Shown: positions 4,061 through 48,061 of the stretch, piece after piece
How the letters are laid out: each line of letters opens with the position of its first letter
Position numbering within the stretch: the first letter of the stretch is position 1
Assembly (NCBI GenBank): GCA_963843685.1
Contig: CAWJLO010000008.1
Span: forward strand, 202,027-266,026
Source of the DNA: an uncultured Chloroflexia bacterium
Lineage (GTDB): Bacteria > Chloroflexota > Dehalococcoidia > DSTF01 > JACRBR01
DNA: 64,000 bases
Direction of reading: 5' to 3'
Notes under the pieces: model-generated
Databases searched by the model: none
The model's input: the letters and a program-made list of their open reading frames with translations, nothing else
What the model was told of the DNA's origin: nothing
Made by a program: the position numbers and the translations under genes

Positions 4061-4174
4061 CTAGTACGGTCTCAGCCAGTAGGCGAACATCGCACCGATT
4101 GCTACAACGACGCCCGCAGCGCCGACCACGAGTAGGGGTATCCCCACAAGCAAAGATGGGTCGTCAAAGAACAC
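4061..4174 (-). CDS. Small 37-aa single-TM protein between ctaE and ctaF, paralogous to the ctaF N-terminal extension.
   Basis: GTG start is preceded by GGAGAG immediately after the ctaE stop. Its stop TAG is embedded in the ctaF SD. Sequence VFFDDPSLLVGIPLLVVGAAGVVVAIGAMFAYWLRPY resembles MHDFFNDPALLVGLPLLVLGLIGGGIAAM of ctaF. It is below the ORF-track size cutoff. Confidence 0.5.
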   Translation of the reverse strand: MFFDDPSLLVGIPLLVVGAAGVVVAIGAMFAYWLRPY

Positions 4175-16767: not shown

Positions 16768-16850
16768 GACATACGGCGGGGCTTGCCGGCTGTCGAGACT
16801 GCTATCATGGACGGACGCCACCATCCCGCCCGTCTCGTCACGGAGGTGAG

Positions 16851-18291
16851 AGTGACTGACGCCGGACACCTGTCCGAGGCCTTCTTTCGAGACCGCTACG
16901 CCATCGACCCGGCGGTCGCTTCCGACCTCCTCGGCGTGGCGCTGAGCCGGGGCGGCGAGCACACCGAGTTGTTCTTCGAGCATCGGCAGGGATCGAACAT
17001 CACGTTCGAGCAAGAAGCCGTGAAGTCGGCATCGCGCAGCACGACGCAGGGTGTCGGAGTACGGGTGATCCAGGGCGACGCGATCGGCTACGCGTACAGC
17101 GAGGACCTGAGCCGGGAGTCGATGCGGCGGGCGGCGGACACGGCTGCGCGGATCGCGTCGCGCGGCGACCGGCCGCAACCCGTCGACGTGATGCACTACG
17201 AGTCGGCGGACTATTACCAGCCGGCGGCCAGCACCGTGAGTGTCGCGCCGGCGGACAAGGTGGAGCTGATCCGACGGGCCGACCGGGCGGCGCGGGCGTT
17301 CGACGCGACGATCGCGCGGGTGGACATCAATTTCATCGACGAACTGAAGCACGTGCTCATCGTCTCCAGCGATGGGCGGATGACGGGCGACGTGCAGCCG
17401 CTGGTCCGGTTCAACGTGAGCTGCCTCTCGGAGAAGGAGGGGAGCCGGCAGACGGCGCGCTGGGGCGGCGGCGGCCGGATGGGGATGCGCTACTTCGAAA
17501 CGAGCACGCCGGAGTCGCTGGCGCAGGAGGCAGCACGCCAGGCCGTCGTGCTGCAGTCGGCAATCGAGGCGCCGGCGGGCACGTTTCCGGTGGTGCTGGC
17601 CGCGGGCGACAGCGGGATCCTCCTGCATGAGGCGATTGGCCACGGGCTGGAGGCGGACTTCAACCGAAAGAAGACGAGCAACTACAGCGACCAGATCGGC
17701 AACGTGGTCGCTTCTCCGCTGTGCACGGTCGTCGACGACGGCACGATCGAGGACAGCCGTGGCAGCATCAACATCGACGACGAGGGCAACCTGCCGGGGT
17801 ACAACGTGCTGATCGAGGACGGCGTGCTGCGCGGATACCTGCAGGACCGGATGAGCACGAAGCACTTCGGCGTGGGTCCGACGGGCAACGGGCGGCGGCA
17901 GTCGTTCAAGCATCACCCGATGCCCCGGATGACGAACACGTACATGCTGGCAGGAGAGTCGTCGCAGGAGGACATCGTCCGCTCCGTCGACCGGGGGATC
18001 TACTGCGTGTCGTTCAACGGCGGCAGCGTGAACATCAGTAACGGCGACTTCGTCTTCAGCGTGACCGAGGGGTATATGATCGAAGGCGGACGCGTGACAG
18101 CACCGATCCGTAACGTGAACCTGATCGGCAACGGACCTGACGTGCTGCGGAAAGTGACGGCGGTCGGCAGCGACTTCAAGCTGAGCGACGGGCGCTGGAC
18201 GTGCGGGAAGGACGGGCAGTCGGTACCGGTCGGCGTGGGTATCCCGACAACGCTGATCAGCGGGATGACGGTCGGCGGCACGGCGGCGTAA
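16851..18291 (+). CDS. tldD: TldD-family metalloprotease.
   Basis: HEAIGHGLE motif. GTG at 16851 is preceded by GGAGGTGA and gives ~480 aa. Alternative starts are TTG at 16783 or ATG at 16807. Confidence 0.85.
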
Positions 18292-18357
18292 CGAAGAGCA
18301 GATCGGCGGCGTTTCCGCCGAACAATGAATCGAACGTACCGGGAAGGGAGTCTAGAC

Positions 18358-18463
18358 ATGAAGAAGCTGGTTATTCTCGTAGCACTGATCGCGATCGCGG
18401 CGTTCGCGTTCTCGAAGTTCAGCGGCGGCGGCGAGCAGGAAGAGCACGAGTTCGGCGCGTAGC
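18358..18463 (+). CDS. Small 34-aa protein (MKKLVILVALIAIAAFAFSKFSGGGEQEEHEFGA) between tldD and pmbA.
   Basis: Strong SD GGGAAGGGAG 8 nt upstream of the ATG. It has a hydrophobic N-terminal segment and an acidic tail. It is below the ORF-track cutoff. Confidence 0.5.
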
Positions 18464-18548
18464 CCGCATCACTCTGCATTGTCCCGGATAACTTCCGCGC
18501 GACGAGCGCGCTGCGCGTCGGCGTGAGCCGTGTGCGCATCGGAATCGT

Positions 18549-19901
18549 ATGAGAGAAGACCTCCTGTCCATCGCCAGCGACATCGTCGAACGAGCGCGGT
18601 CGCTCGGCGCGGACGAGGCCGACGCATACCTGCTGAGCGGGATCGAGTCGACAGTCACGGTGCGCAAGGGCGAAGTCGAGAAGCTCTTCGAGGCTGGCTC
18701 CCGCACGGTCTCGATCCGCGTGATCAAGGACAAGCGAACGGCCGTCTGCAACACGTCGGACTTCACGCCGAAAGCGCTGAGCGAGATGGTGCGCACGGCG
18801 GTGGATCTTGCGCAGATCAGCGAGCCGGATGAGTTCGCGGGGCTGCCGGCGAAGGAAGACCTCGCGATCGAGATGGGTTCGCTGCTGCAGCTCTACGACG
18901 AGCGCGTGGAGTCGATCAGCGTGGACGAGATGAAGGAGATCGTGCTACGCGCTGAGCAGGCGGCGTTCGACTTCGACAAGCGCATCACGAACTCTGAGGG
19001 GGCGGAGTTCGGCGCGGAGCGCGGCGACCTCGTGCTCGCCAACACGCTGGGCTTCGCCGGAAGCTATCCCTACACGGCGGCGAGCTTCTCCGTCGCGGTA
19101 ATCGCGGACGAGGCTGACGGCAAGAAGCAGAGCGACTACTGGTTCAGCGCCGAGCGGATGTTCCACCGGCTCGCATCGCCAGAGGACGTGGGCCGCCGTG
19201 CAGCCGCGCGGGTCGTGCGCAAGCTCGGTGGGCGGAAGATCAACACGCGCGAGGTTCCCGTCGTGTGGGATCCGGCGATGACGGCAGGGCTGCTAGGCGT
19301 GGTGGCGGGAGCGGCGAGCGGCGAGTCGCTGTTCAAACGCTCGACATTCCTGGCGGACGCCGAGGGGCAGCAGGCGCTTTCGCCGCTCGTGACGATCGTC
19401 GACGACCCGACGCTTCCCGGGCAGCTTGGATCGCGGCCGTTCGACGGCGAGGGCGTGCGAGCGCGGCGTAACCAGATCGTCGAGAGAGGCGTCTTTCAAC
19501 AGTTCCTGTTCGACAGCTACTACGGTCGCCGCATGGGGAGGCGGACGACAGGCAACGCCGCACGGGCCGGCGACAGCATCACTGTCGGCGGGAGCAACCG
19601 GCAGTGGCTCGGCGGAGACTCCGATCCAGCCGCGCTCGTGGCGGACGTGAAGGACGGGCTGTATCTCACGGACTTGATGGGGTTCGGGATCAACCAAACA
19701 ACAGGCGATTTCTCGCGAGGTGCGGCCGGCGTGTGGATCGAGGGCGGCCAGCTGACCTATCCGGTCGTGGAGATCAACGTATCGGGCAACCTGAAGCAGA
19801 TGCTCCGGGACATCGACGGCGTCGGCAACGACGTGCAGTGGTTCGGGGGGAGCGCGGCGCCCACGATCCGCATGTCGAACTTGATGGTGAGCGGACTCTG
19901 A
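18549..19901 (+). CDS. pmbA: PmbA/TldE-family protein (TldD partner).
   Basis: 450 aa with PmbA/TldD-family sequence throughout. Confidence 0.85.
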   Translation: MREDLLSIASDIVERARSLGADEADAYLLSGIESTVTVRKGEVEKLFEAGSRTVSIRVIKDKRTAVCNTSDFTPKALSEMVRTAVDLAQISEPDEFAGLPAKEDLAIEMGSLLQLYDERVESISVDEMKEIVLRAEQAAFDFDKRITNSEGAEFGAERGDLVLANTLGFAGSYPYTAASFSVAVIADEADGKKQSDYWFSAERMFHRLASPEDVGRRAAARVVRKLGGRKINTREVPVVWDPAMTAGLLGVVAGAASGESLFKRSTFLADAEGQQALSPLVTIVDDPTLPGQLGSRPFDGEGVRARRNQIVERGVFQQFLFDSYYGRRMGRRTTGNAARAGDSITVGGSNRQWLGGDSDPAALVADVKDGLYLTDLMGFGINQTTGDFSRGAAGVWIEGGQLTYPVVEINVSGNLKQMLRDIDGVGNDVQWFGGSAAPTIRMSNLMVSGL

Positions 19902-19993
19902 GTTCCAGACAGGTGCCAGCCCTCTCTTAAGGGTTCTCCCAGACGACGAAACAGACTCGATGGCGCCTGCGCCGGATCACGTGCGCATCCGCG

Positions 19994-20581
19994 ATGTCTT
20001 TGGCGAGCCGCATTGACACGATGACGAAACGCTTCTTGTTCCACGACGCCTTCTGGTTCCGCGTGCCGCTGAAGACGGTGGTCGTCGGACTCTGCGTGTT
20101 CGGAATTCTGACGCTATGGCCAGCGTTCTGGCGGAACGACGCGCACGACCAGGCTCGGGCGGCGTTCGGACTGGTGATCATGGTGGCGTTCGCCCTGCTG
20201 GCGAGCATCTTCACAGTCGCAGTGAACGACGGATACGTGGAGATCGACGACGACGAGCTGTTGATCCGCTTCGAGGCGTTCTTCAACGCGCGCGTGGCAT
20301 TGACCGACATCGTCACGGTGGGGCTGGTCGATCCCCGGCCGCACTGGCGGTACCGATTCGGGCTGTCGACGAATTTCGTCGATCGCATCTCATGCAGCCA
20401 CGGTGGAGCGCTCGTCGAGATAGAGCTGGCGCAGGCCTGCGTCACGAAGCTGTGGCCGCGGCACATCCCCGTGCGGCGGTTCTGGCTCGGCGTGCGGGAG
20501 CCGGAGACGTTCATCGCGAACCTGCGGGAAGCCGTCGGGCAGGCACAGGAGACCGCGCGATACGAGCGCCGAGCAGCCTGA
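19994..20581 (+). CDS. Hypothetical membrane protein (2 TM plus a bacterial PH-like domain).
   Basis: Two N-terminal TM helices followed by a soluble domain. No catalytic motif was recognised. Confidence 0.55.
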   Translation: MSLASRIDTMTKRFLFHDAFWFRVPLKTVVVGLCVFGILTLWPAFWRNDAHDQARAAFGLVIMVAFALLASIFTVAVNDGYVEIDDDELLIRFEAFFNARVALTDIVTVGLVDPRPHWRYRFGLSTNFVDRISCSHGGALVEIELAQACVTKLWPRHIPVRRFWLGVREPETFIANLREAVGQAQETARYERRAA

Positions 20582-20623
20582 TCGGTCGAGTCGACCCTGT
20601 ATCATGAGATCCCGAGGCATCAC

Positions 20624-22807
20624 ATGATTCAACGCGGTGCGTCCCGCGGCATCACTCGTACGACTGCAGTCGCGTTCGGCGTGGCACTCGCGGCGCTATT
20701 GCTGATCGCGCTCTTTCCGATCTTCCCGCGGCAGTTCAGCGTGCGGGTGGGCGACACAGCCTCGCGGACGCTGCGGGCGCCGCGGGCGCTGTCGTTCGTG
20801 AGTGCGTCGCAGACCGCGGCAGACAAGAAACAGGCGGAGGACGCTGTGCCTCCGACGTATGTGTACGACCCCTCGATCCGCACGGCGCAGCTCGCGGAGT
20901 ACGACAAGACCGTCGCGCAGATCGACGAGATCCGCACCGAGAACGCCGACTATCAGCACAAGAACGACGCCCTGGCCCGACTGCAGTTGTCGCCGCGCAG
21001 CATCGACACGGCGATCGGACTATCGGATGAGCGCTGGCAGGCCGTGGCCGCGGAGGGGCGGCGCGTGCTCTCGCAGGTCCTGAACGCGTCGATCGACGAC
21101 GCCAGCGTAGCCGCCACGAAGGACAGCGTCGACTCGCAGATTGCGCCACAGTTCATCGCGGATGAAGCACTCCTAGCGGCGGAGCTGGTCCGACCGCTCA
21201 TCGTTTCAACACAGAAGGTGGATCCGGACAAGACGCAGCAGGCGAAGGCGGCGGCGAGCGCGGCCATCCCGCCGCACGTGGTCAGCGTGGAGAAAGACGA
21301 GACCATCTTGCAGCCCGGCAAGCCCGTCGACGCGCTGACCGTGGAGAAGTTGAAGGAGGAAGGGCTGCTCTCGAACCGCATCGTGATCCGCAACGTGATT
21401 GCGGTCGCGATTGTATCGGCGGTGATCGCGGCGTGCCTGGCGGCATATCTCGTCGTGCTGCGGCCCAAGGGGATCGATTCGGAGCGCCACCTCCTAGCGC
21501 TGGCGCTGGTGGTCGCCTTGCCGCTGCTCGTTGCGAAGTTCTATCTGCCGCTGGTGCTTCCGGACGAGTCGAGACACTTCCTGGCGTTCATGCTGCCGGT
21601 GGCGGTTGCGCCGATCCTGATCGCGGCACTGCTCGAGACGGACGTGGCGGTCGTGGTGTCGCTGGTGATCGGGGCGTTGATCGCGTTCGTGAGCGCGTTC
21701 CTACCGGACATTTCCCTGGTGGCGTCTGTCGGCCCGCTGGACTCGATGCGCCTGATGCTCGTGTACGGAGTCGCGCCGCTGGTGGGCGTGTTCCTGGTGC
21801 ACAGGGCCGACCGGCTCAATCGCTTCCTCACCGCGGGGCTCGCCACCGGCGCGGCGAGCGGCGCTCTACTGGTGGCGACGTGGCTCATCGACGGGGACAG
21901 GACCAACGTCGACCTGGCGTGGATTGCGTTCGCGTGCGGCATGAACGGCGCGGTCGCGGGAGTGCTGGCGGCGGGCGTGTTCGTCACGCTCGGGGTGCTC
22001 TTCGGCGTCACGACGCGGATCCAGCTCATGGAACTGTCGCAACTCAACGCGCCGCTGTTGCGGCGGCTGCAGGACGAGGCACCGGGCACCTTCCACCACA
22101 GCATCATCGTCGGGAACCTGGCTGAGCGCGCGGCGGACCTGATCGGGGCCGACGCGCTGCTGACAAGGGTCGGCTGCTATTACCACGACATCGGCAAGGT
22201 GATGCAGCCGGGAATGTATATCGAAAACATCGCGGGGGCGGAGTCGCCGCACGACGGGATGTCGCCGGAGGAGAGCGCGAGCGTGATCCAGCAGCACGTG
22301 CTCGGCGGCGTGGAGTTGGCGCGGCGGCAGCGGCTGCCGGCGCGGGTACAGGCGTTCATTCCGGAGCATCACGGCACGAGGTTGGTCGCCTTCTTTTATC
22401 GCAAGGCGGCGGAGAAGAACCCGGAGGTAGACCCGGCCCTGTATCAGTACCCCGGGCCGAAGCCACAGTCACGTGAGACCGCAATCGTGATGCTGGCGGA
22501 CTCGACGGAGGCAGTGATCCGCGCGAGTGAAGACCGGTCGACGGAGCGCATCAACCAACTCGTAGACGAAGTGATCGCAGAGCGCGTGGCAGAGGGGCAG
22601 TTGGACGAAAGCGACCTGACACTGCGAGACCTGCGGACGATCGCGGAGTCATTCAAGACGACGATGCGGGCGGTGTACCACCCGCGCGTGAAGTACCCGG
22701 AGCCGACGCCGATGGAGGCACGGCGGCGCGTCCTGCGGCTGCCGATGCGCACGCTGGGCGGGCAGCGGGTGGACGTGCCGGACCCGCGGCGCCGCAAGCT
22801 CGATTGA
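20624..22807 (+). CDS. 7TM receptor with intracellular HD/HDIG phosphohydrolase domain (PgpH/YqfF-like).
   Basis: Large extracellular N-terminal region, seven TM helices, and a C-terminal HD domain (HHSIIVGNLAERAAD...YYHDIGK). Confidence 0.85.
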   Translation: MIQRGASRGITRTTAVAFGVALAALLLIALFPIFPRQFSVRVGDTASRTLRAPRALSFVSASQTAADKKQAEDAVPPTYVYDPSIRTAQLAEYDKTVAQIDEIRTENADYQHKNDALARLQLSPRSIDTAIGLSDERWQAVAAEGRRVLSQVLNASIDDASVAATKDSVDSQIAPQFIADEALLAAELVRPLIVSTQKVDPDKTQQAKAAASAAIPPHVVSVEKDETILQPGKPVDALTVEKLKEEGLLSNRIVIRNVIAVAIVSAVIAACLAAYLVVLRPKGIDSERHLLALALVVALPLLVAKFYLPLVLPDESRHFLAFMLPVAVAPILIAALLETDVAVVVSLVIGALIAFVSAFLPDISLVASVGPLDSMRLMLVYGVAPLVGVFLVHRADRLNRFLTAGLATGAASGALLVATWLIDGDRTNVDLAWIAFACGMNGAVAGVLAAGVFVTLGVLFGVTTRIQLMELSQLNAPLLRRLQDEAPGTFHHSIIVGNLAERAADLIGADALLTRVGCYYHDIGKVMQPGMYIENIAGAESPHDGMSPEESASVIQQHVLGGVELARRQRLPARVQAFIPEHHGTRLVAFFYRKAAEKNPEVDPALYQYPGPKPQSRETAIVMLADSTEAVIRASEDRSTERINQLVDEVIAERVAEGQLDESDLTLRDLRTIAESFKTTMRAVYHPRVKYPEPTPMEARRRVLRLPMRTLGGQRVDVPDPRRRKLD

Positions 22808-35169: not shown

Positions 35170-37026
35170 CTACTGCCTGCGGGCGAGGCGGGCCCGGTCG
35201 ACCTGGGCGAGGGCACGCTTCCTGAGACGCAGGCTCGCCGGCGTCACCTCCAACATCTCGTCATCGCCGATCCACTCCAGCGCCTGCTCCAGCGACAGCC
35301 TGCGCACAGGCATGAGCTGGATGGCGATGTCCGACGTCGACGAGCGGATGTTGGTGAGCTTCTTCTCTTTGGTGATGTTGACGTTGATGTCGGACTCGCG
35401 GGCGTTCTCGCCGACGACCATGCCCTCATAGACCTGATCGCCGGGTTCCACGAACATCTCGCCTCGCTCCTGCGCGTTCTCGATCGCGTATCCCGTGACC
35501 TTGCCGTTGCGGTCAGCGACGAGCGCGCCGGTGATCCTGTGTTCGATCTCGCCCTGCCACGGCTCGTATCCGTCGAAGAGGTGGTTGAGGAGGCCGGTGC
35601 CGCGGGTATCGGTGAGGAACTGGCTACGGAAGCCGATCAGGCCCCGTGAGGGGATGCGGAACTCCAGGCGGACGCGGCCAGTGCCGTGGTTCACCATGTT
35701 GAGCATGCGGCCCTTTCGGATCGAGAGCTTCTGAGTGACGATGCCGACGTAGTCCTCGGGACAATCGACGACCAGGTGCTCCATCGGCTCGTGGCGCGCG
35801 CCATCAATCTCGCGTGTGATCACCTCTGGCTTGCTCACTGACAGTTCGTAGCCCTCGCGCCGCATCATCTCGATCAGGATGGCCATCTGGAGCTCGCCGC
35901 GGCCGGAGACCTTGAAGCTGTCCGTCGACTGGACTTCCTCGACGTGCAGCGCGACGTTGGTGAGGATCTCCCGCTGGAGGCGGTCACGCAGGTTGCGCGA
36001 CGTGACGAACTGGCCCTCTCGGCCGGCGAAGGGCGACGTATTGATGGAAAACATCATGCTCACCGTGGGTTCATCAACGGTGACGCGAGGCAGCGCGCGA
36101 GGATCGTCGGGGTCGGTGATAGTGTCGCCGATGTTGACCTCGTCAAAGCCGGCGAGCGCGACGATGTCGCCGGGGCCCGCCTCCGGCACCTCCACCCGCT
36201 CGAGGCCTTCGAATGCGTAGAGGTACGTGACACGTGCCCGGCCGACGCTGCCGTCTTCGCGCACGACACCGACGTCTCCCTTCGCGCGGACGTTGCCGTT
36301 CACGATGCGGCCAACGGCGAGGCGTCCAACAAACTCGGAGTAGTCAAGGTTCAACACCAGCATCTGCAGCGGGATGCCGGGGTGATAGGCAGGCGCGGGA
36401 ATGTTGCGAATGATCTCGTCGAAGAGCGGCTTGAGCTGGTGGTCCTCACCTTCCGGCGTGAGGCGACAGATGCCTTCGCGGGCGATGGTGTACAGCACGG
36501 GGAAATCGAGTTGGTCTTCGCGCGCGTCGAGGTCGATGAACAGGTCATAAATCTCGTTCAGCACCTCCTGGGTTCGCGCGTCCTTGCGATCGATCTTGTT
36601 GATCACGACGATCGGCGGCAGGCCGAGCTCGAGCGCCTTCTTCAGCACGAAGCGCGTCTGCGGCAGCGGGCCCTCGCTGGCGTCGACGAGCAGCAACACG
36701 CCGTCAACCATCTTGAGGGTCCGTTCAACCTCGCCGCCAAAATCAGCGTGCCCCGGCGTGTCGACGATGTTGATCTTGTACCGGCCGAACCGGACGGACG
36801 TGTTCTTGGCGAGGATCGTGATGCCCTTCTCGCGCTCGAGGTCGTTCGAGTCCATGACGCGCTCGACGACTTCCTGGTTCTCGCGGAAGACACCGCTTTG
36901 CCACAGCATGGCGTCGACCAGCGTCGTCTTGCCATGGTCGACGTGCGCGATGATGGCGATGTTGCGGATATCGTCGCGGACGGCGGAAGTCTGCTCCGCG
37001 GCGCTCGTCGTCTGGGGGTGGCTCAT
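35170..37026 (-). CDS. typA: Translational GTPase TypA/BipA.
   Basis: G1 [10 protein letters not shown]3 DTPGHADF, and an EF-G-like domain order. Confidence 0.9.
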
Positions 37027-37194
37027 CCTTCTCCTTCATGCGGTCGCGCGGACAGACGCCATCGATTGCGCGTGCGCACGCCGGTGGATTCGTAGCAGCT
37101 TCGCGGGGATCCGGCTATAGGGGGAACGGAGGAACCGCGGTCGCCATACAGTGCATCGATCATACCAGATGCGATTGGCACCTGCCGCAGTCAA

Positions 37195-37653
37195 TCACCG
37201 CAGCGTGGTCGCGCCACTGTAAGGGCCGCCGGGCGCCCACATGTTCCAGTGCGCTGCCGCGGCCCACGCCTGCGCGGCGTTGGCCCAATCGAGGTATTTG
37301 GCGTTATCACCGTAGTAGGCGGCCTTCGCTAGGCCGACGTACACCATGACAATGGAGATGTTGTACTCGGCGCCATCACTGCCGACGACGATCGGCGCAG
37401 CGAGATCACGTCCGTAACGGTCAACGCGTACGGCGTCGTAGTCGAGGCGGGCCTCGGTGCCCGGGGGAAGAAAGATGTTGTTGAGCGCGGCCTTCGCCCA
37501 TTGGCCTCCGCAATCGCTCAGCTCCTGGGCGTTGATCTGGAGCATGCGGACGTGCTTGCCGCCGATGCAGACGAAGGTATCACCGTCGATCACGCGTTCG
37601 ACGGTGCAGGTCGTCGGCGCGGCTTGCGCCTGACGCGGGGCACGCGCGAACAC
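37195..37653 (-). CDS. Thermonuclease (SNase-like) family protein.
   Basis: VIDGDTF motif and a TNase-like core. The in-frame upstream sequence looks like a signal peptide but lacks a canonical start codon. Confidence 0.7.
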   Translation of the reverse strand: MFARAPRQAQAAPTTCTVERVIDGDTFVCIGGKHVRMLQINAQELSDCGGQWAKAALNNIFLPPGTEARLDYDAVRVDRYGRDLAAPIVVGSDGAEYNISIVMVYVGLAKAAYYGDNAKYLDWANAAQAWAAAAHWNMWAPGGPYSGATTLR

Positions 37654-37778
37654 GGGCCAGACAAGGACGGCGGCGAGCGCAACGGCCGGCAGCGTCCATG
37701 GTCGGAAGGGGCCCTGCTTCCAGATCGGCGCGCGGCACCGCTGGTCGTCGGCATCTGGCCGCTCAGTCGGGCGTCTCG

Positions 37779-38306
37779 CTAGTCTTTCCAGATCGGGTAC
37801 TGCTGGGCACGGCGGAGCCGGAAGTCCGTCTCGGGGAGGCGGAATCCCAGCGCCCGAACTTTCTTCAGCGTCGCCTCGGCCTGCTTGCGCTCGGTCGCAT
37901 TCAGGGCCGCCTGGAAGAGCTCCCCGTACAACTCTTTCGTGATCTGCACGACCTCTTCGGCGATCTTGCGGCCCGACGGGGTCAGCTCAAGTCCGACGGC
38001 ACGGCGGTCGTCAGGATCGGGCTGCCGCTGCACCCATCCGCGCCCTTCGATGCGATGCAGGATGCCGGTGATGCTCTGCGTCTCCTGGAACAGCAACGTC
38101 GCGACTGCGCTTGGCTTGATCGGCTCGGACGAGAACATGAGGACCACGAGCACGCGTGCCTGCGAGGCGGAGACGCCGAGGTGATAGATGCGGCGCTCCA
38201 GGAGCTTCCACGACATCCAGTACACCTCACTGACGAGCGCCCATGGCATCATCGCCGGATCCATGAATGTCGGTGCAGACGCGGACGGCTGCGAACGCTT
38301 AGGCAT
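37779..38306 (-). CDS. MarR-family transcriptional regulator.
   Basis: wHTH (SASQARVLVVL...ITGILHRIEGRGWVQR). Confidence 0.8.
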   Translation of the reverse strand: MPKRSQPSASAPTFMDPAMMPWALVSEVYWMSWKLLERRIYHLGVSASQARVLVVLMFSSEPIKPSAVATLLFQETQSITGILHRIEGRGWVQRQPDPDDRRAVGLELTPSGRKIAEEVVQITKELYGELFQAALNATERKQAEATLKKVRALGFRLPETDFRLRRAQQYPIWKD

Positions 38307-38420
38307 GTTCAGGGCCTCCTTCAGCGATCAACCCTCATCGCATGGTCGATATGGCCGGCGTCTCAACCTTACCGCTGAGTGGTTCGCCGATCAGCGGTCG
38401 CCCAGGTCCGCGGCCGGCGC

Positions 38421-38498
<78 letters not shown>

Positions 38499-38604
38499 GC
38501 GATCCGCGCCAGTGTATCACTACGATCCTGCGCCTTCGATTGGGGGTGCGCCAGCCGATCTCGCGAGCGATGTCAACCGCACGACGCGCATCGGCGCGAC
38601 GTGC

Positions 38605-38820
38605 TCATCGCGCGGGCGCGGCGACGTTCTGCCTCTTGCTCGCTCGTGGCGTTGCGGTCAGGAGCGGCAACCTTCGCTCCGGGAAGGTGGCGGGTACGAC
38701 GGGCATTCCCATGAACGAGGTCGCCGCAAGTGCGGAGAACGGCTCCGGGACGGCTTCGTGCAGCTGCTCGGCGAGGGAGACCATGCGCTCCAGGGCGATC
38801 TGCTTGTTCAGGATCAGCAT
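38605..38820 (-). CDS. Possible small hypothetical protein (~71 aa).
   Basis: GC3-biased frame MLILNKQIALERMVSLAEQLHEAVPEPF... It has no clear SD and the C-terminal third is low-complexity. Confidence 0.25.
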   Translation of the reverse strand: MLILNKQIALERMVSLAEQLHEAVPEPFSALAATSFMGMPVVPATFPERRLPLLTATPRASKRQNVAAPAR

Positions 38821-38949
38821 CGCCGGGGACTTTCGCCGCCGGGGCGACGCGCCGCCATGCGGGAGAGCCCTTAGCCGAGGGGGAGATCGCATGGGGACGG
38901 CGGGGGGTTATCGCGCGCTAAGGATTGGGTGAATCTGACGGCTGCGACG

Positions 38950-39888
38950 TTATGTCGTGTGGGATTGGGCGGGGCGGGCGGCGGCCACGAGCTCGCGGAG
39001 GTGCTGGATCCTGTGGTCGCGGAGGTGGCGCTCGATGCCTTCGAGGACGTGGATGGGGGCGAGGGGGTCGCGGAAGGTGGCGGTGCCGACCTGGACGGCA
39101 GAGGCGCCGGCGAGCAGGAATTCGACGGCGTCTTCGCCGGTGGAGATGCCGCCGCAGCCGATGACGGGGACGTCGACGGCGGAGGAGACCTGCCAGACCA
39201 TGCGGAGGGCGACGGGCTTGAGCGCGGGGCCGGAGAGGCCGGCGAAGGTGCGGGCGATGCGGGGCTTGCCCGTCGCGGCGTCGATGGACATGGCCTGGAG
39301 GGTGTTGATGACGCAGAGGGCATCGGCGCCGGCTTCGACGACGCGGCGGGCGATGGCGACGATGTCGGTGACGTTCGGGGTGAGCTTGACGATGACGGGG
39401 AGCGAGCTGGCGCGGACGCAGGCGGCGGTGACGGCGGCGGCGACCTCGGCGTCCTGGCCGAACTCCATGCCGCCCTGCTGGGCGTTCGGGCTGCTGATGT
39501 TGAGCTCAAGGCCGGCGATGCCGGGGACGCCATCGAGGGCGGCAGCGCAGTCGCCGTACTCTTCGACGGTGCTGCCGAGGATGCTGACGATGACGGGCAC
39601 CTTCCAGCGCTCCCATGTGGGCGCCATGTCGCGGATGAGCTTGTCGACGCCGATGTTCTGGAGGCCGATGGAGTTGAGCATGCCGGCGGGGGTCTCGTCG
39701 ATGCGGGGGGCGGGGCTGCCGGCGCGGGGCCGGAGGGTCGTGGTCTTCGAGACGATGGCGCCGAGACGCTGGATGTCGAAGACGCGGGGCCAGTCGACGC
39801 CGTAGCTGAAGGTGCCGGAGGCGACCATCACGGGGTTGGCGAGCGTGAGGGAGCGCTTGCCCGAGGCGAGATCGACGGAGAGGTCCAT
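38950..39888 (-). CDS. pyrD: Dihydroorotate dehydrogenase (class 1 catalytic subunit).
   Basis: 312 aa TIM-barrel DHODH (NSIGLQN, active-site Cys in SSPN, GGISTGEDA). Confidence 0.9.
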   Translation of the reverse strand: MDLSVDLASGKRSLTLANPVMVASGTFSYGVDWPRVFDIQRLGAIVSKTTTLRPRAGSPAPRIDETPAGMLNSIGLQNIGVDKLIRDMAPTWERWKVPVIVSILGSTVEEYGDCAAALDGVPGIAGLELNISSPNAQQGGMEFGQDAEVAAAVTAACVRASSLPVIVKLTPNVTDIVAIARRVVEAGADALCVINTLQAMSIDAATGKPRIARTFAGLSGPALKPVALRMVWQVSSAVDVPVIGCGGISTGEDAVEFLLAGASAVQVGTATFRDPLAPIHVLEGIERHLRDHRIQHLRELVAAARPAQSHTT

Positions 39889-39954
39889 GTGCGCGGGGCC
39901 CTTCGGTGATTTGCCGGAGTATAGCGGGCGTGCGGCGTCGATCGATGGGAGGGG

Positions 39955-40020
39955 CGCTGCGCCCTCTGCACTTCCGCCTTGGCGCTCCGCGCCCTCCTCT
40001 CCCGTCGCCTCCGGCGCTCT
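39955..40020. repeat. Copy 1 of a ~70-bp direct repeat flanking the ABM gene.
   Basis: GGGAGGGGCGCTGCGCCCTCTGCACTTCCGCCTTGGCGCTCCGCGCCCTCCTCTCCCGTCGCCTCCGGCG is ~80% identical to 40476..40545. Confidence 0.6.
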
Positions 40021-40315
40021 ACGGCGCTGTAGCGGCGACGATGACTTCGCCGACGGTGCGAACCTGTTCGCTGGCGAGATGCGGGGCGACGTTCTGGGCG
40101 AACCAGCCGGGGCCGATGATGGCGCCGCCGTTCTGGGCGTCCGCCGCGGTGTCCCAGAGGATGACGACGGCGGCTCGATCGTCGGCTTCCTTCACGTAGT
40201 AGAAGGCGCGGAAGCCGGATAGGCCACGAATGAGGGGAAGGAGGCCGGACTCGAGCTTCGGGCGGAGCTGCTCTACGGGCATGTCGAGGTGGAGGTGGTT
40301 GATGACGGCGTGCAT
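40019..40315 (-). CDS. ABM/Dabb-like small protein (98 aa).
   Basis: ATG at 40315 with AGGAG 9 nt upstream. Sequence MHAVINHLHLDMP...AVVILWDTAAD is typical of ABM-fold proteins. Confidence 0.6.
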   Translation of the reverse strand: MHAVINHLHLDMPVEQLRPKLESGLLPLIRGLSGFRAFYYVKEADDRAAVVILWDTAADAQNGGAIIGPGWFAQNVAPHLASEQVRTVGEVIVAATAP

Positions 40316-40475
40316 GTGTGCGGCTCCTGCTGATGAGTGTTTTCGTACAGTATCCACGAAGGACGGGCGTGACCGCGACTATATGTTCTCAACATTTTCG
40401 CTTGCCTCACCCTGTTGTGCCGGGTGGTGGCGAGCTGAGGCGCGGATCGGTGGTGGGGGCGGAGCTGCCTTGCCG

Positions 40476-40545
40476 GGAGGGCGGCGCCTTCGGCATTTTC
40501 CGCCTTGGCGCTTCGCGCCGCCCTCTCCGGTCGCCTGCGGCGACA
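40476..40545. repeat. Copy 2 of the ~70-bp direct repeat, followed by a CTCTCCC-ACAAGG-GGAGAGGG hairpin.
   Basis: GGGAGGGCGGCGCCTTCGGCATTTTCCGCCTTGGCGCTTCGCGCCGCCCTCTCCGGTCGCCTGCGGCG. Confidence 0.6.
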
Positions 40546-40927
40546 CCCTCTCCCACAAGGGGAGAGGGAGGTGACGGCGGTGGGGCACGGCGGAGGAGCG
40601 GGGAGTGTGACCTCGCCGCCGGTCGGGTGGATCAGTGGCCGTGCGGAGTGGTCGCCGGTGCGTGGTTGACCTCACCCCCCGGCCCCCTCTCCAGCGGTCT
40701 GGCGAGGGGGAGCTTGTGTCGGGGCGATGAGGTGCGGTGTGGGGCTGGTGCGGCGGAGCGAGCGAAGGGGGCTCTCCTTCGGCGAGTGTGCCACGGGCAC
40801 GCGGGGCAGCAGCCGCTACCACGGACGGGAGTCTGCTCGTCGGGACGCGAGTGGCGATTTGCACGCGGGAGCGTGGCGGGGCGTCGTGCCATACTGGTTG
40901 CGGGGAGAGCACACAGGAGGAGCGACC

Positions 40928-41155
40928 GTGGGGCGGAAAGAGATCGAGGCGCTGATCAAGGTGTTGCAGCAGCAGCTGGCGGCGGGGCGCGACAGCGTGG
41001 TCACAGGATCGTGGCAGATCATCTACAGCCGGGACCACGACGCCTTCCTGTTCGAGAAGTGCGAGGTGGGGGGCGGGTACTGCGAGGAGCGGCCGAGCGT
41101 GGTGTCGGTGACGGGGAAGGTGCTGGACAAGGGCGGGCCGCTGCTGGGGAACTAA
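40928..41155 (+). CDS. Small hypothetical protein (75 aa).
   Basis: GTG with an excellent SD (ACAGGAGGAGCGACC GTG). Coding-like composition. Confidence 0.55.
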   Translation: MGRKEIEALIKVLQQQLAAGRDSVVTGSWQIIYSRDHDAFLFEKCEVGGGYCEERPSVVSVTGKVLDKGGPLLGN

Positions 41156-41386
41156 TCGTTCATCGTTTGCGGTGGACGGTGACGGGTGATGCAGTGTCCG
41201 CTGTCGCGTACCCTGCATCACCTTTGAAGCGGGCCGGGGGACACCCCCGGAGCCCCCCGGCAGGGGGCGCTGCGCTCCCTGCACCCCCGGCTATGGCGCC
41301 GGGGAGTCGAGGGTGAAGGACTGAAGAGGGGCGTTACCAGCGGGGATAACGGGCGGTTCAGCAGCGGATGAGAATCGGAGGAACGC

Positions 41387-42130: not shown

Positions 42131-42910
42131 ATGAACGACAACAAGGCGACGTGGACCCGACTCCGCTTGTTCAACGCGCTCATGGCGCTCGTTCACAGTG
42201 GCCAAGGCATCGCCATCCTCCTACTGAGTAACGAGGCCACGGTCCCAGTTCGGACGTCGTTTCTCCGCTTCAACGAGGGGCAGCAGGCACTCGAGACGTA
42301 CACGCGCGACGTGTTCGATCTGCAGCTGGCACCCCTGGTCGCGGCGTTTCTCTTCATTTCGGCGATCGCCCACGCCCTGGTCGCCCTTCCCCGGGTGTTT
42401 GGATGGTACGTCGCCAACGTGCAGCGCTCGATCAACTACGTCCGCTGGTGGGAATACGCCGCGAGCGCGTCTCTCATGATCGCCGTGATCGCGATGCTTA
42501 CGGGGATGTACGACCTTGGCAGCCTCATCCTCATCTTCTCGCTGAATGCGACGATGCTGCTGTTCGGGTTGTTGATGGAGACGCAAAACCGGCCCGGCAA
42601 CCGGGTCACGTGGCTCCCGTTCGTGTTCGGCTGTATGGCGGGTACCGTGCCGTGGGGCGTCATCGCCCTCTATTTGTGGTCGCCGGGCACGGGCCCCGGA
42701 GAGCCGCCCGCGTTCGTATACGCGATCTTCTTCTCTCTGTTTGTCTGGTACTCGCTCTTCGCCCTCAATATGTGGCTCCAGTATCGCCGCGTAGGCCCAT
42801 GGCGGGACTACGTGTTCGGCGAGTACGGATACATCGTACTTAGCCTGACGGCGAAGTCGCTCCTCGCATGGCAGGTCTTCGCGGGCGCCCTTACGCTACC
42901 CGTAAATTGA
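42131..42910 (+). CDS. Heliorhodopsin (7TM retinal protein, inverted topology).
   Basis: Block-by-block similarity to the prototype heliorhodopsin 48C12 (SINYVRWWEYAASASLMIAVIA; NATMLLFGLLME; LPFVFGCMAGTVPWG; FVYAIFFSLF; YIVLSLTAKSLLAWQVFAG carries the Schiff-base Lys in TM7). Length 259 aa. Confidence 0.9.
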   Translation: MNDNKATWTRLRLFNALMALVHSGQGIAILLLSNEATVPVRTSFLRFNEGQQALETYTRDVFDLQLAPLVAAFLFISAIAHALVALPRVFGWYVANVQRSINYVRWWEYAASASLMIAVIAMLTGMYDLGSLILIFSLNATMLLFGLLMETQNRPGNRVTWLPFVFGCMAGTVPWGVIALYLWSPGTGPGEPPAFVYAIFFSLFVWYSLFALNMWLQYRRVGPWRDYVFGEYGYIVLSLTAKSLLAWQVFAGALTLPVN

Positions 42911-44043: not shown

Positions 44044-44140
44044 CGTGCGGCGATGGCGCGATGGACGTTTTGGGTCGTTGCGTTCGTGCCAGGGGCGGTG
44101 TTCGCGGCGACGGTGGCGCAGAGGTGGCGGGGTCTCGACA
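44044..44140 (+). repeat. ~100-bp degenerate duplicate of the tauE 5' end (start codon plus first ~30 codons).
   Basis: ATGGCGCGATGGACGTTTTGGGTCGTTGCGTTCGTGCCAGGGGCGGTGTTCGCGGCGACGGTGGCGCAGAGGTGGCGGGG is ~85% identical to 45088..45185. Confidence 0.65.
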
Positions 44141-44278: not shown

Positions 44279-45013
44279 ATGAAGTGGGGCCGCAGACTGA
44301 CGATCGCCTTCTTGCTGGTGGCGCCGATCTTCCTGCTGGGCGCACGATGCATCGACCACGAGAGTCTACGAAAAGGCCCTGACGGCGATTGGCACCTGTA
44401 CGGTGAGATCCACAACGACACGAACGTCCAGGGCACGCAGATCCTCCTCCAGGGGACGCTGTACGATCCCTCCGGCAGGGTGATGGCTGTCGGTCAGACG
44501 TATATCTGTCCAGGGGATCTGTCGCCGGGCACGTTTTCGGTCTACGACATCCGGTTCAAGGACTCTTCGGCGATCGTTGGGCCCTTTGCACGCAAGATCA
44601 ACGTGCTGAGCGGCAAGGCGGTCCCAGAACATCTTCCGCCGCTGCCGGTGACCGACGTCAACTTCACGACCACGGCAACCCGAGCCTTCGACGGATCGGT
44701 GAACTGGGAGATCGTCTTCAAGTACTCACCGCCGCTGACGGGCCCGGTTTCGTCGGGGTCCATGGCTGGCTGCGTGGCGTTCTACGATGCTTCGGGCAAC
44801 GTCGTTTCGGTGGAGGGTCCGGACACACCGGGTATCGGAGGGTTCCACATCTCGGGTTACAGCCAAATCGTACGTGACATGGACCCGACCGTCCCGGCCG
44901 ACGCGGTTTCCTTCCGCGGGTTGTTCTGGTTTCCCCATTCGGACAGCGCTTTCTTCGAGTCCGACTATGCGCCCGTGATCTCCGACGCGGTCACGATCCC
45001 GGCAGAACCGTAG
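44279..45013 (+). CDS. Hypothetical secreted protein (244 aa).
   Basis: Signal peptide MKWGRRLTIAFLLVAPIFLLGARC. SD GAGGGACGGAC ATG. Beta-rich composition. Confidence 0.65.
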   Translation: MKWGRRLTIAFLLVAPIFLLGARCIDHESLRKGPDGDWHLYGEIHNDTNVQGTQILLQGTLYDPSGRVMAVGQTYICPGDLSPGTFSVYDIRFKDSSAIVGPFARKINVLSGKAVPEHLPPLPVTDVNFTTTATRAFDGSVNWEIVFKYSPPLTGPVSSGSMAGCVAFYDASGNVVSVEGPDTPGIGGFHISGYSQIVRDMDPTVPADAVSFRGLFWFPHSDSAFFESDYAPVISDAVTIPAEP

Positions 45014-45096
45014 CGCCGACTCTGTCCTCGGCCTGACGCCCAGCCGCCCGGCGGACGGCGCTACCTTCGCGTGAGCGCATCCGGCAGTATGGCGCG

Positions 45097-45837
45097 ATGG
45101 ACGTTTGGATCGTCGTGGTTGTGCTGGCGGCAGTGTTCGTGGCGACGGTGGCGCAGACGGTGGCGGGGTTCGGGTTCGCGCTGATCGTGGTGCCGGCGTT
45201 CGTGGCGGTGCTGGACGTGCGGGACGCGATCGTGCTGACGACGCTCGTCGGGATCATCAACAACGGCGTGCTGGCGTTCACGACGCGGCGTCACGTGCCG
45301 TGGGGGACGGTGACGCCGATGCTGCTCGGGGCGGCCGCGGGGATGCCGGTGGGGCTGGCGGTGCTGCTGCTGGCGCCGGCGGACGCGATCCGGATCAGCG
45401 TCGGGGTGGCGACGATCGTGATCGCGGGGGCGCTGGCGCGCGGGCTGCGGTTCCGGGACGCGAGCGTGGTGGCGGCGGCGACGGCGGGCGGGATCTCGGG
45501 GCTGCTGAACACGAGCGTGGGGATCAACGGGCCGCCGGTGGCGCTGTACCTGCAGGGGCGGGAGCTGCCGCACGGCGAGTTTCGGGGGGCGCTGGCGGTG
45601 TTCTTCGTCGTGAGCAACGTGATCGCGATCGCGATCTTCGTCGTCTCGATGATCATCACGTCGACGGCGCTGGCGCTGTGGGCGGCGGCGGTCCCGGCGG
45701 TGGGTGTGGGGAGCTTCGTGGGGCACCGGCTGGTGCATCGGGTGAACCCGGTGGTGTTCCGGCGGCTGGTGTACGTGTTGCTGCTGGCGTCGGCGCTGTC
45801 GGCTATCGGGTCGTCGGTGGCGCGAATGGCGGGGTGA
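45097..45837 (+). CDS. Sulfite exporter TauE/SafE family membrane protein.
   Basis: Eight TM helices with the TauE-type internal repeat (VAGFGFALIVVP..., GGISGLLNTSVGINGPPVALYL). Confidence 0.8.
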   Translation: MDVWIVVVVLAAVFVATVAQTVAGFGFALIVVPAFVAVLDVRDAIVLTTLVGIINNGVLAFTTRRHVPWGTVTPMLLGAAAGMPVGLAVLLLAPADAIRISVGVATIVIAGALARGLRFRDASVVAAATAGGISGLLNTSVGINGPPVALYLQGRELPHGEFRGALAVFFVVSNVIAIAIFVVSMIITSTALALWAAAVPAVGVGSFVGHRLVHRVNPVVFRRLVYVLLLASALSAIGSSVARMAG

Positions 45838-45937: not shown

Positions 45938-46823
45938 ATGGCGCCACTTCTCCTCCATCTCGGCGGAACGTCGACGACCACCTGGTGGCACTGGCCGGTG
46001 CGAGCCGACGTGATCATGACGTGCCTCGTCATGCTGGCGGCGTACTTCTACGTGATCACGCAGCTGCGGGAGGTCTGGTCGGACGCGGGGCGCGTGCGGC
46101 GGTCGCAGATCGCGTGTTTCGTGACGGGCGTGCTGGTGATGTACCTGGCCACCGGCTCGCCGATCGACACGGTAGGCGACAACTTCCTGTTGGCGGCGCA
46201 CATGCTGCAGCACATGCTGCTGCTCTTCGTGGTGGCGCCGCTGCTGCTCGCGGGGACGCCAACGTGGGTGTGGCAGCGGATGCTGCGGCGGCCGAGCCGT
46301 GCTGCGCGTGGCGAAGGTGATCGTGCATCCGGTGATGGCGCTGGCGATCGTCTCAGGGACGTTCATCGCGGTGCACCTGCCGGCGGTGCTGGACTTCCAG
46401 CTACAGCACGACTCGGCGCACCTGTTCGGGCACATCGCGCTGACGGCGGCCGGGTTCGTGCTGTGGTGGCCGGTGCTGAGCACGGTGCCGGAGTTGCCGC
46501 GGAGCTCGTACCCGGTGCAGATCGCGTACCTGTTCGTGCAGTCGCTGGCGCCGTCGATCCTGGCGTCGTTCGTCACGTTCGCGGACGGGGCGGTGTACTC
46601 GTTCTACGCGCAACAGCCGCGGCTGTGGGGGCTCTCGGCGGTGACGGACCAGCAGATCGCGGGGGGCATCATGAAGCTCTTCGGGCTGGTGGCGACGTGG
46701 TGGTTCATCGCGCTGGCGTTCCATCGCTGGTATCGCCTGGAGACGCAGGAGGCGGAGAAAGAGCCGCTCTGGAGCGAGGTCGAGGAAGAGCTGCAGAGCA
46801 TGGGGCTGACGTCGGGGCACTGA
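45938..46823 (+). pseudogene. ctaG: Caa3-type cytochrome c oxidase assembly factor CtaG (Bacillus type), split by a single-base frameshift near 46290-46300.
   Basis: N-terminal 120 aa in the frame of ORF 45938 (...HMLQHMLLLFVVAPLLLAGTPTWVWQRML). The C-terminal 175 aa in the frame of ORF 46299 (VLRVAKVIVHPVMALAIV...) continue the same family. Combined length is ~295 aa. Confidence 0.65.
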
Positions 46824-46939
46824 GCCGCTGGCGGGCTCGTCACTCCACTGACACACGACACTTCTTCTCCGCAGGGCCGGGGCCCTACTTCCGAATACAC
46901 TATGTCGATGATCCTGCTCACGACACACGCGAGTCGCGC

Positions 46940-48061
46940 GTGATCGCGCTGGCGCCGCTGGGCGTGGCGATGATCGGGCTGGTGCTGTGGGACGCGTTCG
47001 AGACGGTGGTGCTGCCGCGGCGCGTGGACCGGCGATTCCGTCCGGCGCGGTGGTTCTATCGCACGTTCTGGCGGACGTGGCGGCTGGGCGCCGAGAAGAC
47101 ATCGGGCGATCAGCGAGAGTGGCTGCTGGCGGTGTTCGGGCCGCTCTCGGTGCTGATGCTGTTCGTGTTCTGGGCGTCGCTGTTGATCCTGGGGTTCGCG
47201 TTGGTGCAGGTGTCGGCGGGCTCGGGGCTGATCGTGGGCGGGCGCGAGGCGAACTTCGGGACGGCGATCTACCTCAGCGGGACGACGTTCTTCACGCTGG
47301 GGCTGGGGGACGTGGCGCCGACGACGGGGTTCGCGCGGGCGATCACGGTGATCGAGGCGGGCACGGGGTTCAGCTTCCTGGCGCTGGTGATCGGCTACCT
47401 GCCGATCCTGTACCAGACGTTCTCGCGGCGCGAGCTGAACGTGACGCTGCTGGACGCGCGGGCGGGATCGCCGCCGACGGCCGGGGAGATGCTGCGGCGG
47501 TACGGCGCATCCGGGGACGGAGCGTCCAAGGACGCGACGGAGCTGGAGCGGCTGCTGCTCGACTGGGAGCGTTGGGCGGCGGAGCTGCTGGAGAGCCACG
47601 TTTCGTACCCGATCGTGGGGTACTTCCGGTCGCAGCACGACCACCAATCGTGGCTGGGGGCCGTGACGGCGATGCTCGACTTCTCGGCGCTGGTGCTGGC
47701 GTGCGAGCGGGACAACCGGCTACGGCGTCCGGCGGAGCTTGCGTTCGCGATGTCGCGGCACGCGGTGGTCGACCTGATGCAGACGTTCAAGCTGGAGCTG
47801 CACGACCCGGAGCCGGAGCGGCTGGGGGTGGCCGACCGCGCGCGGCTGGAGCCGATGCTGGCGGCGGCGGGCATGTCATCGCTGGCGGACGGCGCAGCGT
47901 GGGCGCGGCTGACGGAGCTGCGGGCGATCTACGAGCCGTATACGGCGGCGCTGGGGCTGTTCTTCCTGATCGACCTGCCGCCGTGGCTGATCGACAAGCG
48001 GCAGGCGGACAACTGGCAGACGAGCGACCGCGGCTCGGTGCTGCCGGCGTCGTGGGGTTAG
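46940..48061 (+). CDS. 2TM ion-channel (K+ channel-like pore, Ion_trans_2) protein with a C-terminal cytoplasmic domain.
   Basis: TM1, a pore helix with filter TTFFTLGLGDVAP, and TM2. The start is uncertain: GTG 46940 or ATG 46970. Confidence 0.7.
   Translation: MIALAPLGVAMIGLVLWDAFETVVLPRRVDRRFRPARWFYRTFWRTWRLGAEKTSGDQREWLLAVFGPLSVLMLFVFWASLLILGFALVQVSAGSGLIVGGREANFGTAIYLSGTTFFTLGLGDVAPTTGFARAITVIEAGTGFSFLALVIGYLPILYQTFSRRELNVTLLDARAGSPPTAGEMLRRYGASGDGASKDATELERLLLDWERWAAELLESHVSYPIVGYFRSQHDHQSWLGAVTAMLDFSALVLACERDNRLRRPAELAFAMSRHAVVDLMQTFKLELHDPEPERLGVADRARLEPMLAAAGMSSLADGAAWARLTELRAIYEPYTAALGLFFLIDLPPWLIDKRQADNWQTSDRGSVLPASWG

Follow-up and report, generated by a model that had tools for sequence, protein, structure and literature searches.

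Two direct repeats flank a small gene in the genome of an uncultured Chloroflexia bacterium, and the question that this locus raises is whether they mark the ends of a mobile gene cassette or came to lie on either side of the gene in another way. The locus was analysed within a window of 64,000 nucleotides, i.e. the whole stretch of DNA under study. A sequence-only reading had taken the arrangement for a cassette bounded by REP-like or recombination-site repeats rather than for ordinary intergenic DNA, and had named a comparison of related strains and structure prediction as ways of checking it.

Self-blastn of the whole 64-kb window returned only two repeat pairs, one of which was formed by the flanking repeats (c1 and c2, Table 1), aligned in direct orientation over 71 nt at 81.7% identity (E = 1.7e-10). 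The core without gaps comprised 45 nt at 89% identity (39972–40016 vs. 40498–40542), and the 22-mer TTCCGCCTTGGCGCTYCGCGCC, common to both copies, occurred exactly twice in the window, with 0 occurrences expected from 100 shuffles. Both the repeats with their identity and the perfect hairpin after the second copy (9-bp stem), as first described from the sequence alone, were thereby reproduced, the original coordinates being right to within ~8 nt. Tandem duplication was ruled out as the origin of the pair, as the similarity is confined to ~70 nt and no remnant of a gene paralogue lies between or beside the copies. Copy c1 has the pyrD promoter region on one side and, abutting its right edge, the stop codon of the small gene on the other. 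Counted on the coding (minus) strand, c2 lies 160–230 nt upstream of the start codon of the small gene, and c1 59–128 nt upstream of that of pyrD. At 22–28 nt, the exact c1/c2 matches come close to the lower limit usual for homologous recombination, and a rare deletion of the intervening gene is therefore conceivable on general grounds.

Table 1 Features of the repeat locus, numbered by position in the 64-kb window
Feature	Position	Strand	Remarks
pyrD (dihydroorotate dehydrogenase)	38950..39888	-	Conserved left anchor of the locus
Repeat copy 1 (c1)	39947..40016	+	Hairpin B, linker ACTTCCGCCTT, hairpin C, linker CCTCCTCTCC, 5′ part of hairpin E
c1 hairpin B	39947–39969		
c1 hairpin C	39981–39993		GGCGC-TCC-GCGCC
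c1 hairpin E, 5′ part	40004–40016		
ABM-fold gene (98 aa)	40019..40315	-	Between c1 and c2; conserved; structure model
Repeat copy 2 (c2)	40475..40542	+	Degenerate B, hairpin C, linker GCCCTCTCC, hairpin E
c2 hairpin C	40507–40519		GGCGC-TTC-GCGCC
c2 hairpin E	40530–40544		GTCGCC-TGC-GGCGAC
Hairpin F	40546..40568	+	CCCTCTCCC-ACAAG-GGGAGAGGG; perfect 9-bp stem, 5-nt loop; single copy in window
Hairpin G	40670..40716	+	CCCCCTCTCCAG-CGGT-CTGGCGAGGGGG, leader TCACCCCCCGG
75-aa gene	40928..41155	+	Conserved right anchor of the locus
Module A-B	41228..41289	+	Downstream of 75-aa gene; CCGGGGG-ACA-CCCCCGG, then GCAGGGGGCGC-T-GCGCTCCCTGC

Both copies are strings of short GC-rich hairpins joined through pyrimidine-rich linkers. 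The general order of the unit is hairpin B (GGGAGGGGCGC-T-GCGCCCTCTGC, degenerate in c2), linker ACTTCCGCCTT, hairpin C (GGCGC-TYC-GCGCC), linker (G)CCCTCTCC and hairpin E (GTCGCC-TSC-GGCG..); for c2, an alternative pairing exists in the form of a 15-bp long-range stem (40473–40487 with 40515–40530). The A-B module that follows the 75-aa gene shares homology with the 5′ part of c1 through its B hairpin. Hairpins F and G are both situated in the long spacer to the right of the small gene (40316–40927), and within the window all modules A–G are confined to 39.9–41.3 kb. Hairpins B, C, E and F, with stems of 5–10 bp, all lie in intergenic DNA. Upon structure prediction, c1 and c2 folded into related multi-hairpin structures, with good folds on either strand and z-scores of -2.9 to -4.5. 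Consensus folds kept B, C, E and F with 1–2 compensatory changes each, as judged from only 3–5 sequences with some pairs broken; copies of hairpin F in three related loci (L003, L004 and L018) flank the small gene on both sides and include one compensatory change from T-A to C-G. A hairpin with the loop of hairpin F and a near-identical stem (CCCCCTCCCC-ACAAG-GGGGAGGGG) was also seen in an unrelated metagenomic contig (L006 3838–3860), and hairpins of this type may have a wide taxonomic distribution.

For the bracketed gene, 24 homologues were found, down to ~50% identity, and the protein matched no Pfam family, even at E ≤ 5. The AlphaFold (AF2) model (pLDDT 96.9) had the order β-α-β-β-α-β (E-H-E-E-H-E), and the top Foldseek matches included LsrG, MhuD, ActVA-Orf6 and SnoaB (TM 0.7–0.8, probability 1.0). 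By its predicted fold, the protein is a member of the ABM superfamily (antibiotic biosynthesis monooxygenase, dimeric α+β barrel); as the Pfam ABM profile gave no match, membership is by fold only, the level at which the former label "ABM-like" was correct. Foreign origin of the gene received no support from composition, the GC content at third codon positions (0.86) being inside the normal range of the window genes. About 70 nt upstream of its start, in an otherwise GC-rich spacer, an AT-rich palindrome was noticed (ATGTT-CTC-AACAT, 40383–40395), a candidate operator or promoter element that is not conserved in the related loci L003 or L005.

The locus is followed on the left by pyrD, tRNA-Pro, a MarR-family regulator and an SNase-like nuclease, and on the right by the 75-aa gene, an F420H2-dependent quinone reductase and heliorhodopsin, the neighbouring genes being in mixed orientation. 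The closest relatives by pyrD are MAGs labelled Chloroflexota or Dehalococcoidia. A Pfam scan of ~47 window genes revealed no integrase, transposase or RAYT (Y1/IS200-like). An Rfam search of the window (gathering threshold and E ≤ 1) yielded tRNA-Pro and a sub-threshold scr5239 match only, the latter being taken as chance (23 bits vs. a gathering score of 64), and no PyrR site. Promoter and terminator consensus scanning of 39800–41000 gave no hits and no U-tract terminators.

Relatives of the locus were then compared. In L003, L004, L018 and L019 as well as in L005, whose small proteins are 82–86% identical, the order is quinone reductase or 75-aa gene, small gene and pyrD, as in the window; the small gene adjoins pyrD in three lineages, and the flanking modules differ in each. 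In L003 and L018, the small gene has an E-F module on either side, and the two modules share 80% identity over 70 nt. The upstream E-F copy of L003 (707–760) is 94% identical to the 3′ (D-E-F) part of window c2 and orthologous to it; the B-C part is absent in L003. L005 contains a c1 orthologue (6348–6425), an A-B-C-D-E element with 85% identity over 60 nt and a 28-nt exact match, and no module of any kind at the position of c2. The A-B module of the window has its orthologue in L005 beyond the 75-aa gene (5493–5554), and a second A-B copy is found there at 6393–6450. Hairpin G recurs in L005 (1724–1769), in a non-orthologous spacer upstream of heliorhodopsin. Module A alone was detected in the unrelated contig L017, one isolated module-A hairpin being all that scans of viral contigs for modules A and E-F returned. 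The spacers vary widely in length, that between the small gene and the 75-aa gene measuring 612 nt in the window, 220 nt in L003 and ~91–135 nt in L005, and that between the small gene and pyrD 130 nt, 1142 nt and 486 nt, respectively.

Other relatives lack the intact gene. In L014 and L021–L023 (pyrD 83–86% identical), the 75-aa gene and pyrD are directly divergent at a distance of 142–166 nt, with neither the small gene nor any repeat module between them. In L015 (9862–9918) and L016 (4572–4628), a 19-codon 3′ remnant of the ABM-fold gene, NVGPHLASDEVRSTGEAIV (tblastn, E ~1e-4), was located between the 75-aa gene and pyrD, on the pyrD strand and ~70 nt upstream of pyrD, with no c1 sequence between remnant and pyrD. 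The surviving remnant indicates that L015 and L016 lost the gene through partial deletion.

The sister strain L013 (GCA_964418935.1; 98% nucleotide identity, pyrD 99% identical), in which the interval between the 75-aa gene and pyrD measures 424 bp, was rejected as a further empty site, the interval consisting of a 100-N scaffold gap (L013 1201–1300) placed exactly over window positions 39951–40663, which makes it uninformative as to an absence of the gene. Evidently, this hairpin-rich stretch of ~74% GC defeats short-read assembly and mimics an empty site. Module A is missing in L013, where an indel or replacement of ~80 nt sets the sequence apart from that of the window. Viewed more widely, ~113 nt downstream of the 75-aa gene (window 41150–41263 vs. 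L013 683–716) are swapped for 35 unrelated nt, a hairpin and module A being part of the exchanged segment, and the context of the stop codon of the 75-aa gene differs, too. As the window segment resembles the more distant L005 rather than L013, its origin may lie in allelic replacement by recombination, as the sequences suggest.

With respect to copy number, the B-C-D-E unit turned up at no more than three places when the window and all fetched loci were searched with profiles, namely as c1, as c2 and at one orthologous site in L005. Outside the c1/c2 neighbourhood, there was no copy in the other ~62 kb of the window and none in ~160 kb of relatives' loci. The 22-mer core had 2 matches in 596 Gb of GTDB species-representative genomes and 3 in JGI metagenomes (collections that do not include the source genome), all regarded as chance, with no flank similarity and mostly inside coding sequence. 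Within the window, these loci and the two collections, the unit is very low in copy number and not a ubiquitous REP at hundreds of unrelated loci, the outcome that the first reading had set against itself.

Taken as a whole, a mobile gene cassette bounded by recombination sites is not supported, because the gene adjoins pyrD in three lineages with differing modules around it, because L015 and L016 retain part of the gene next to a site free of c1, because the empty sites carry no repeat copy, because L005 has c1 and nothing in place of c2, because attC core sites, a target-site duplication and a shared GTAG/CGTC tag are all missing, and because none of the ~47 window genes encodes an integrase, transposase or RAYT. 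A recombination-site cassette would leave one repeat behind at empty sites and excise cleanly; neither was observed. Of the earlier interpretation, the cassette part accordingly fell, and the REP-like part stood, in that the repeats are strings of palindromic hairpin modules and not ordinary intergenic DNA. Judging from synteny in three lineages together with the 3′ remnant in L015 and L016, where c1 is absent, the ABM-fold gene is older than the repeats and was at this site before the lineages of the window, L003, L005 and L015 split.

The explanation that we favour, and consider probable to a modest degree, is that c1 and c2 are low-copy, locally duplicating REP/BIME-like or miniature palindromic elements that landed on either side of a pre-existing gene. 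They are copies of one composite palindromic element, non-coding and built from three short GC-rich hairpins with pyrimidine-rich linkers, and belong to a small set of modules (A–G) that presumably duplicates, shuffles and gets lost in the spacers of one rearrangement-prone neighbourhood in an uncultured Chloroflexota lineage. The ABM-fold gene was in place first, between pyrD and the 75-aa gene, the elements presumably arriving later in both spacers, so that the bracketing would be a by-product and not a cassette boundary. The elements may have spread locally, through duplicative copying or through template switching at hairpins, or with the help of a transposase acting in trans, and c1, lying between the small gene and pyrD, might act on transcripts as an insulator hairpin or as one at the mRNA 3′ end.

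This explanation is supported by modules at non-orthologous sites (c1 vs. c2, the two A-B copies of L005 at 5493 and 6393, E-F in L003 and L018, G at 40670 vs. L005 1724, and A in L017), by the large differences in spacer length among relatives and by the ~80-nt change at module A in a strain of 98% identity. Relative to L015, c1 is extra DNA, and so is c2 relative to L005; the presence, absence and reshuffling of modules, directly visible among the relatives, differ between lineages and even between strains. Counting against it are the very low copy number, with two unit copies in 64 kb, and the lack of both a GTAG/CGTC tag common to the two copies and a RAYT in the window. For annotation, the locus teaches that a gene between two direct repeats may arise from hairpin spacer elements flanking an older gene, and that cassette boundaries should not be inferred from repeats alone. 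Mosaic hairpins of REP/BIME-like character are also documented by it for an uncultured high-GC Chloroflexota lineage, and such elements are seen to break short-read assemblies, as in the sister-strain scaffold with its gap exactly at the cluster.

Known element types were used for comparison, with REP criteria sensu Nunvar 2010 and Di Nocera 2013. Like REPs and BIMEs (PMC2817692, PMC3333891, PMC3733652), the modules are short, GC-rich, imperfect palindromes in intergenic DNA, form mosaics with variable linkers, vary in presence between strains and species and often lie just downstream of genes. Classic REPs, however, usually number >100 per genome (PMC2817692), whereas the present unit is of very low copy number in all DNA searched. 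Furthermore, a conserved GTAG/CGTC tag is lacking: GTAG does not occur inside c1 or c2, and hairpin E is preceded by CGTC in c1 (40003) and by GGTC in c2, CGTC having a background of 8 per kb in the window. The absence of a RAYT gene among the window genes is another difference from REPs. While BIME units typically alternate in orientation, different hairpins follow each other here in series on one strand, and both copies are direct. As in REPIN or MITE-like elements (PMC3116915, PMC3184786), c2 can be folded as a long hairpin with inverted arms of 13–15 nt and a ~27-nt spacer, resembling a REP doublet, and the unit is 70–110 nt long, non-coding and an insertion relative to relatives. In contrast to these elements, a large family of near-identical copies was not demonstrated, the window yielded no cognate transposase, the ends of the unit (GGGAGGG...CCTCTCCC) are only loosely inverted rather than terminal inverted repeats of MITE type, and the flanks (tcgatcgat and ctctacgg; gccttgcc and acaccctc) contain no target-site duplication. 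The elements are therefore best filed as new low-copy intergenic palindromic repeats, and not as REPs in the strict sense.

An alternative origin, which we regard as unlikely, is a recombination scar: c1 and c2 would date from the arrival of the small gene, or of an allele replacing it, with donor and recipient contributing one copy each, either by Campbell-type integration via a short shared segment or by homology-facilitated illegitimate recombination anchored in pyrD. The abutment of the right boundary of c1 on the stop codon would suit such an event, as would the position of the locus at the edge of a flexible region and brackets of like geometry nearby, namely those around a 244-aa gene of the window and around the DUF4272, cupin and heliorhodopsin genes of L005 (see below). 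The c1 orthologue in L005 and the c2 orthologue in L003, on the other hand, imply that both copies are older than the window lineage; the differing repeated segments would require three independent events in three lineages; L015 had the gene at the site without c1; and no arrangement of donor or recipient type occurs among the relatives' loci.

Doubtful, too, is a role of c1 and c2 as a shared cis-regulatory element, in which the core TTCCGCCTT followed by GGCGC-N3-GCGCC would constitute an operator or RNA structure upstream of the small gene (c2) and of pyrD (c1), co-regulating or insulating the two genes or acting as terminator or mRNA stabiliser. The distances of the copies from the two start codons given above are compatible with this, compensatory changes accompany the conservation of palindrome and hairpins, and one strand is favoured for folding by the several G-U pairs that hairpin B contains. 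At c1, however, the strand so favoured is antisense to both the small gene and pyrD. The element is moreover missing at the same positions in close relatives (no B-C in L003, no c2 in L005, none in L014, L015 and L021), and neither an Rfam family, PyrR site included, nor terminator-like or promoter-like sites in 39800–41000 were matched.

Duplicated gene ends bracketing single genes were observed independently of c1 and c2. The only other repeat pair of the window (44053–44133 vs. 45089–45169; 82 nt, 85%) belongs to this type. Its right copy represents the genuine beginning of a TauE-family gene (45097–45837), comprising ~8 nt upstream and ~24 codons, and its left copy is a frame-broken duplicate of that 5′ end upstream of the 244-aa gene (44279–45013), which is thus bracketed by duplicates of its neighbour's 5′ end. 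In L005, ends of the F420H2-quinone-reductase gene (53–77 nt, 90–97% identical), present as three copies of the 3′ end (215–276, 1769–1845 and 2789–2865) and two of the 5′ end (3178–3229 and 4076–4128), bracket the DUF4272, cupin and heliorhodopsin genes. These brackets look like scars of recombination-mediated gene gain or insertion that left the target gene intact.

That c1 and c2 are one case of such lineage-specific gain of single genes, in which new genes are flanked by 50–80-nt repeats copied from the insertion site, we hold to be quite improbable; five brackets in two related genomes (ABM-fold and 244-aa genes in the window, the three genes in L005) were counted for it. If true, it would point to recombinase-independent or trans-acting integration at short homology with the target gene left intact. 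The gene-end duplications, including the heliorhodopsin bracket, are the more valuable lead, as they would, if systematic, reveal gene acquisition without visible mobile-element machinery. The ssrA-targeted islands of Dehalococcoides (PMC3146451) resemble the gene-end brackets only, being Chloroflexota inserts between direct repeats of a gene end with the target intact. Those islands use the tmRNA gene as target, have a ~20-nt repeat, are multi-gene and carry a recombinase, whereas the inserts described here are single genes between 53–82-nt repeats of protein-gene ends, with no recombinase seen.

A site-specific gene cassette, of integron type or otherwise, in which c1 and c2 would serve as attC-like sites and which would share with integron cassettes a small gene between similar imperfect palindromic sites of 60–70 nt in the same orientation, is already largely refuted and exceedingly improbable, since neither attC core site (R″, RYYYAAC; R′, GTTRRRY) occurs anywhere in 39889–40930, no integrase is among the ~47 window genes scanned, no cassette array in one orientation exists (pyrD, tRNA-Pro, heliorhodopsin and the F420H2 quinone reductase lie nearby in mixed orientation), the neighbours are of housekeeping type and each seems to have a promoter region of its own, no repeat copy is left at empty sites, the gene is older than the repeats, and its loss in L015 was by partial deletion, not excision.

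In comparison with L015, the window from ~39.9 to 51.9 kb forms a flexible segment between conserved blocks, with the c1/c2 locus at its edge. Several further observations were made in this neighbourhood. The heliorhodopsin gene (PF18761, E = 1.8e-96; 42131–42910, + strand) adjoins the F420H2-dependent quinone reductase and lies in a variable region of a high-GC Chloroflexota genome. In L014 and L021, the genes immediately before the 75-aa gene and pyrD are those for PmbA/TldD and 7TMR-HDED; in the window (16783–22807 and 35170–41155), the BipA-SNase-pyrD-75-aa block is inverted relative to these loci and ~12 kb away from the 7TMR-HDED gene, which indicates a putative inversion with one breakpoint beside the 75-aa gene. 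Finally, a single ORF of 707 aa (45938–48061, + strand) carries both an N-terminal Caa3_CtaG match and an Ion_trans_2 channel domain and is overlapped in another frame by an ORF of 174 aa (46299–46823); it may represent a frameshift or two fused genes.
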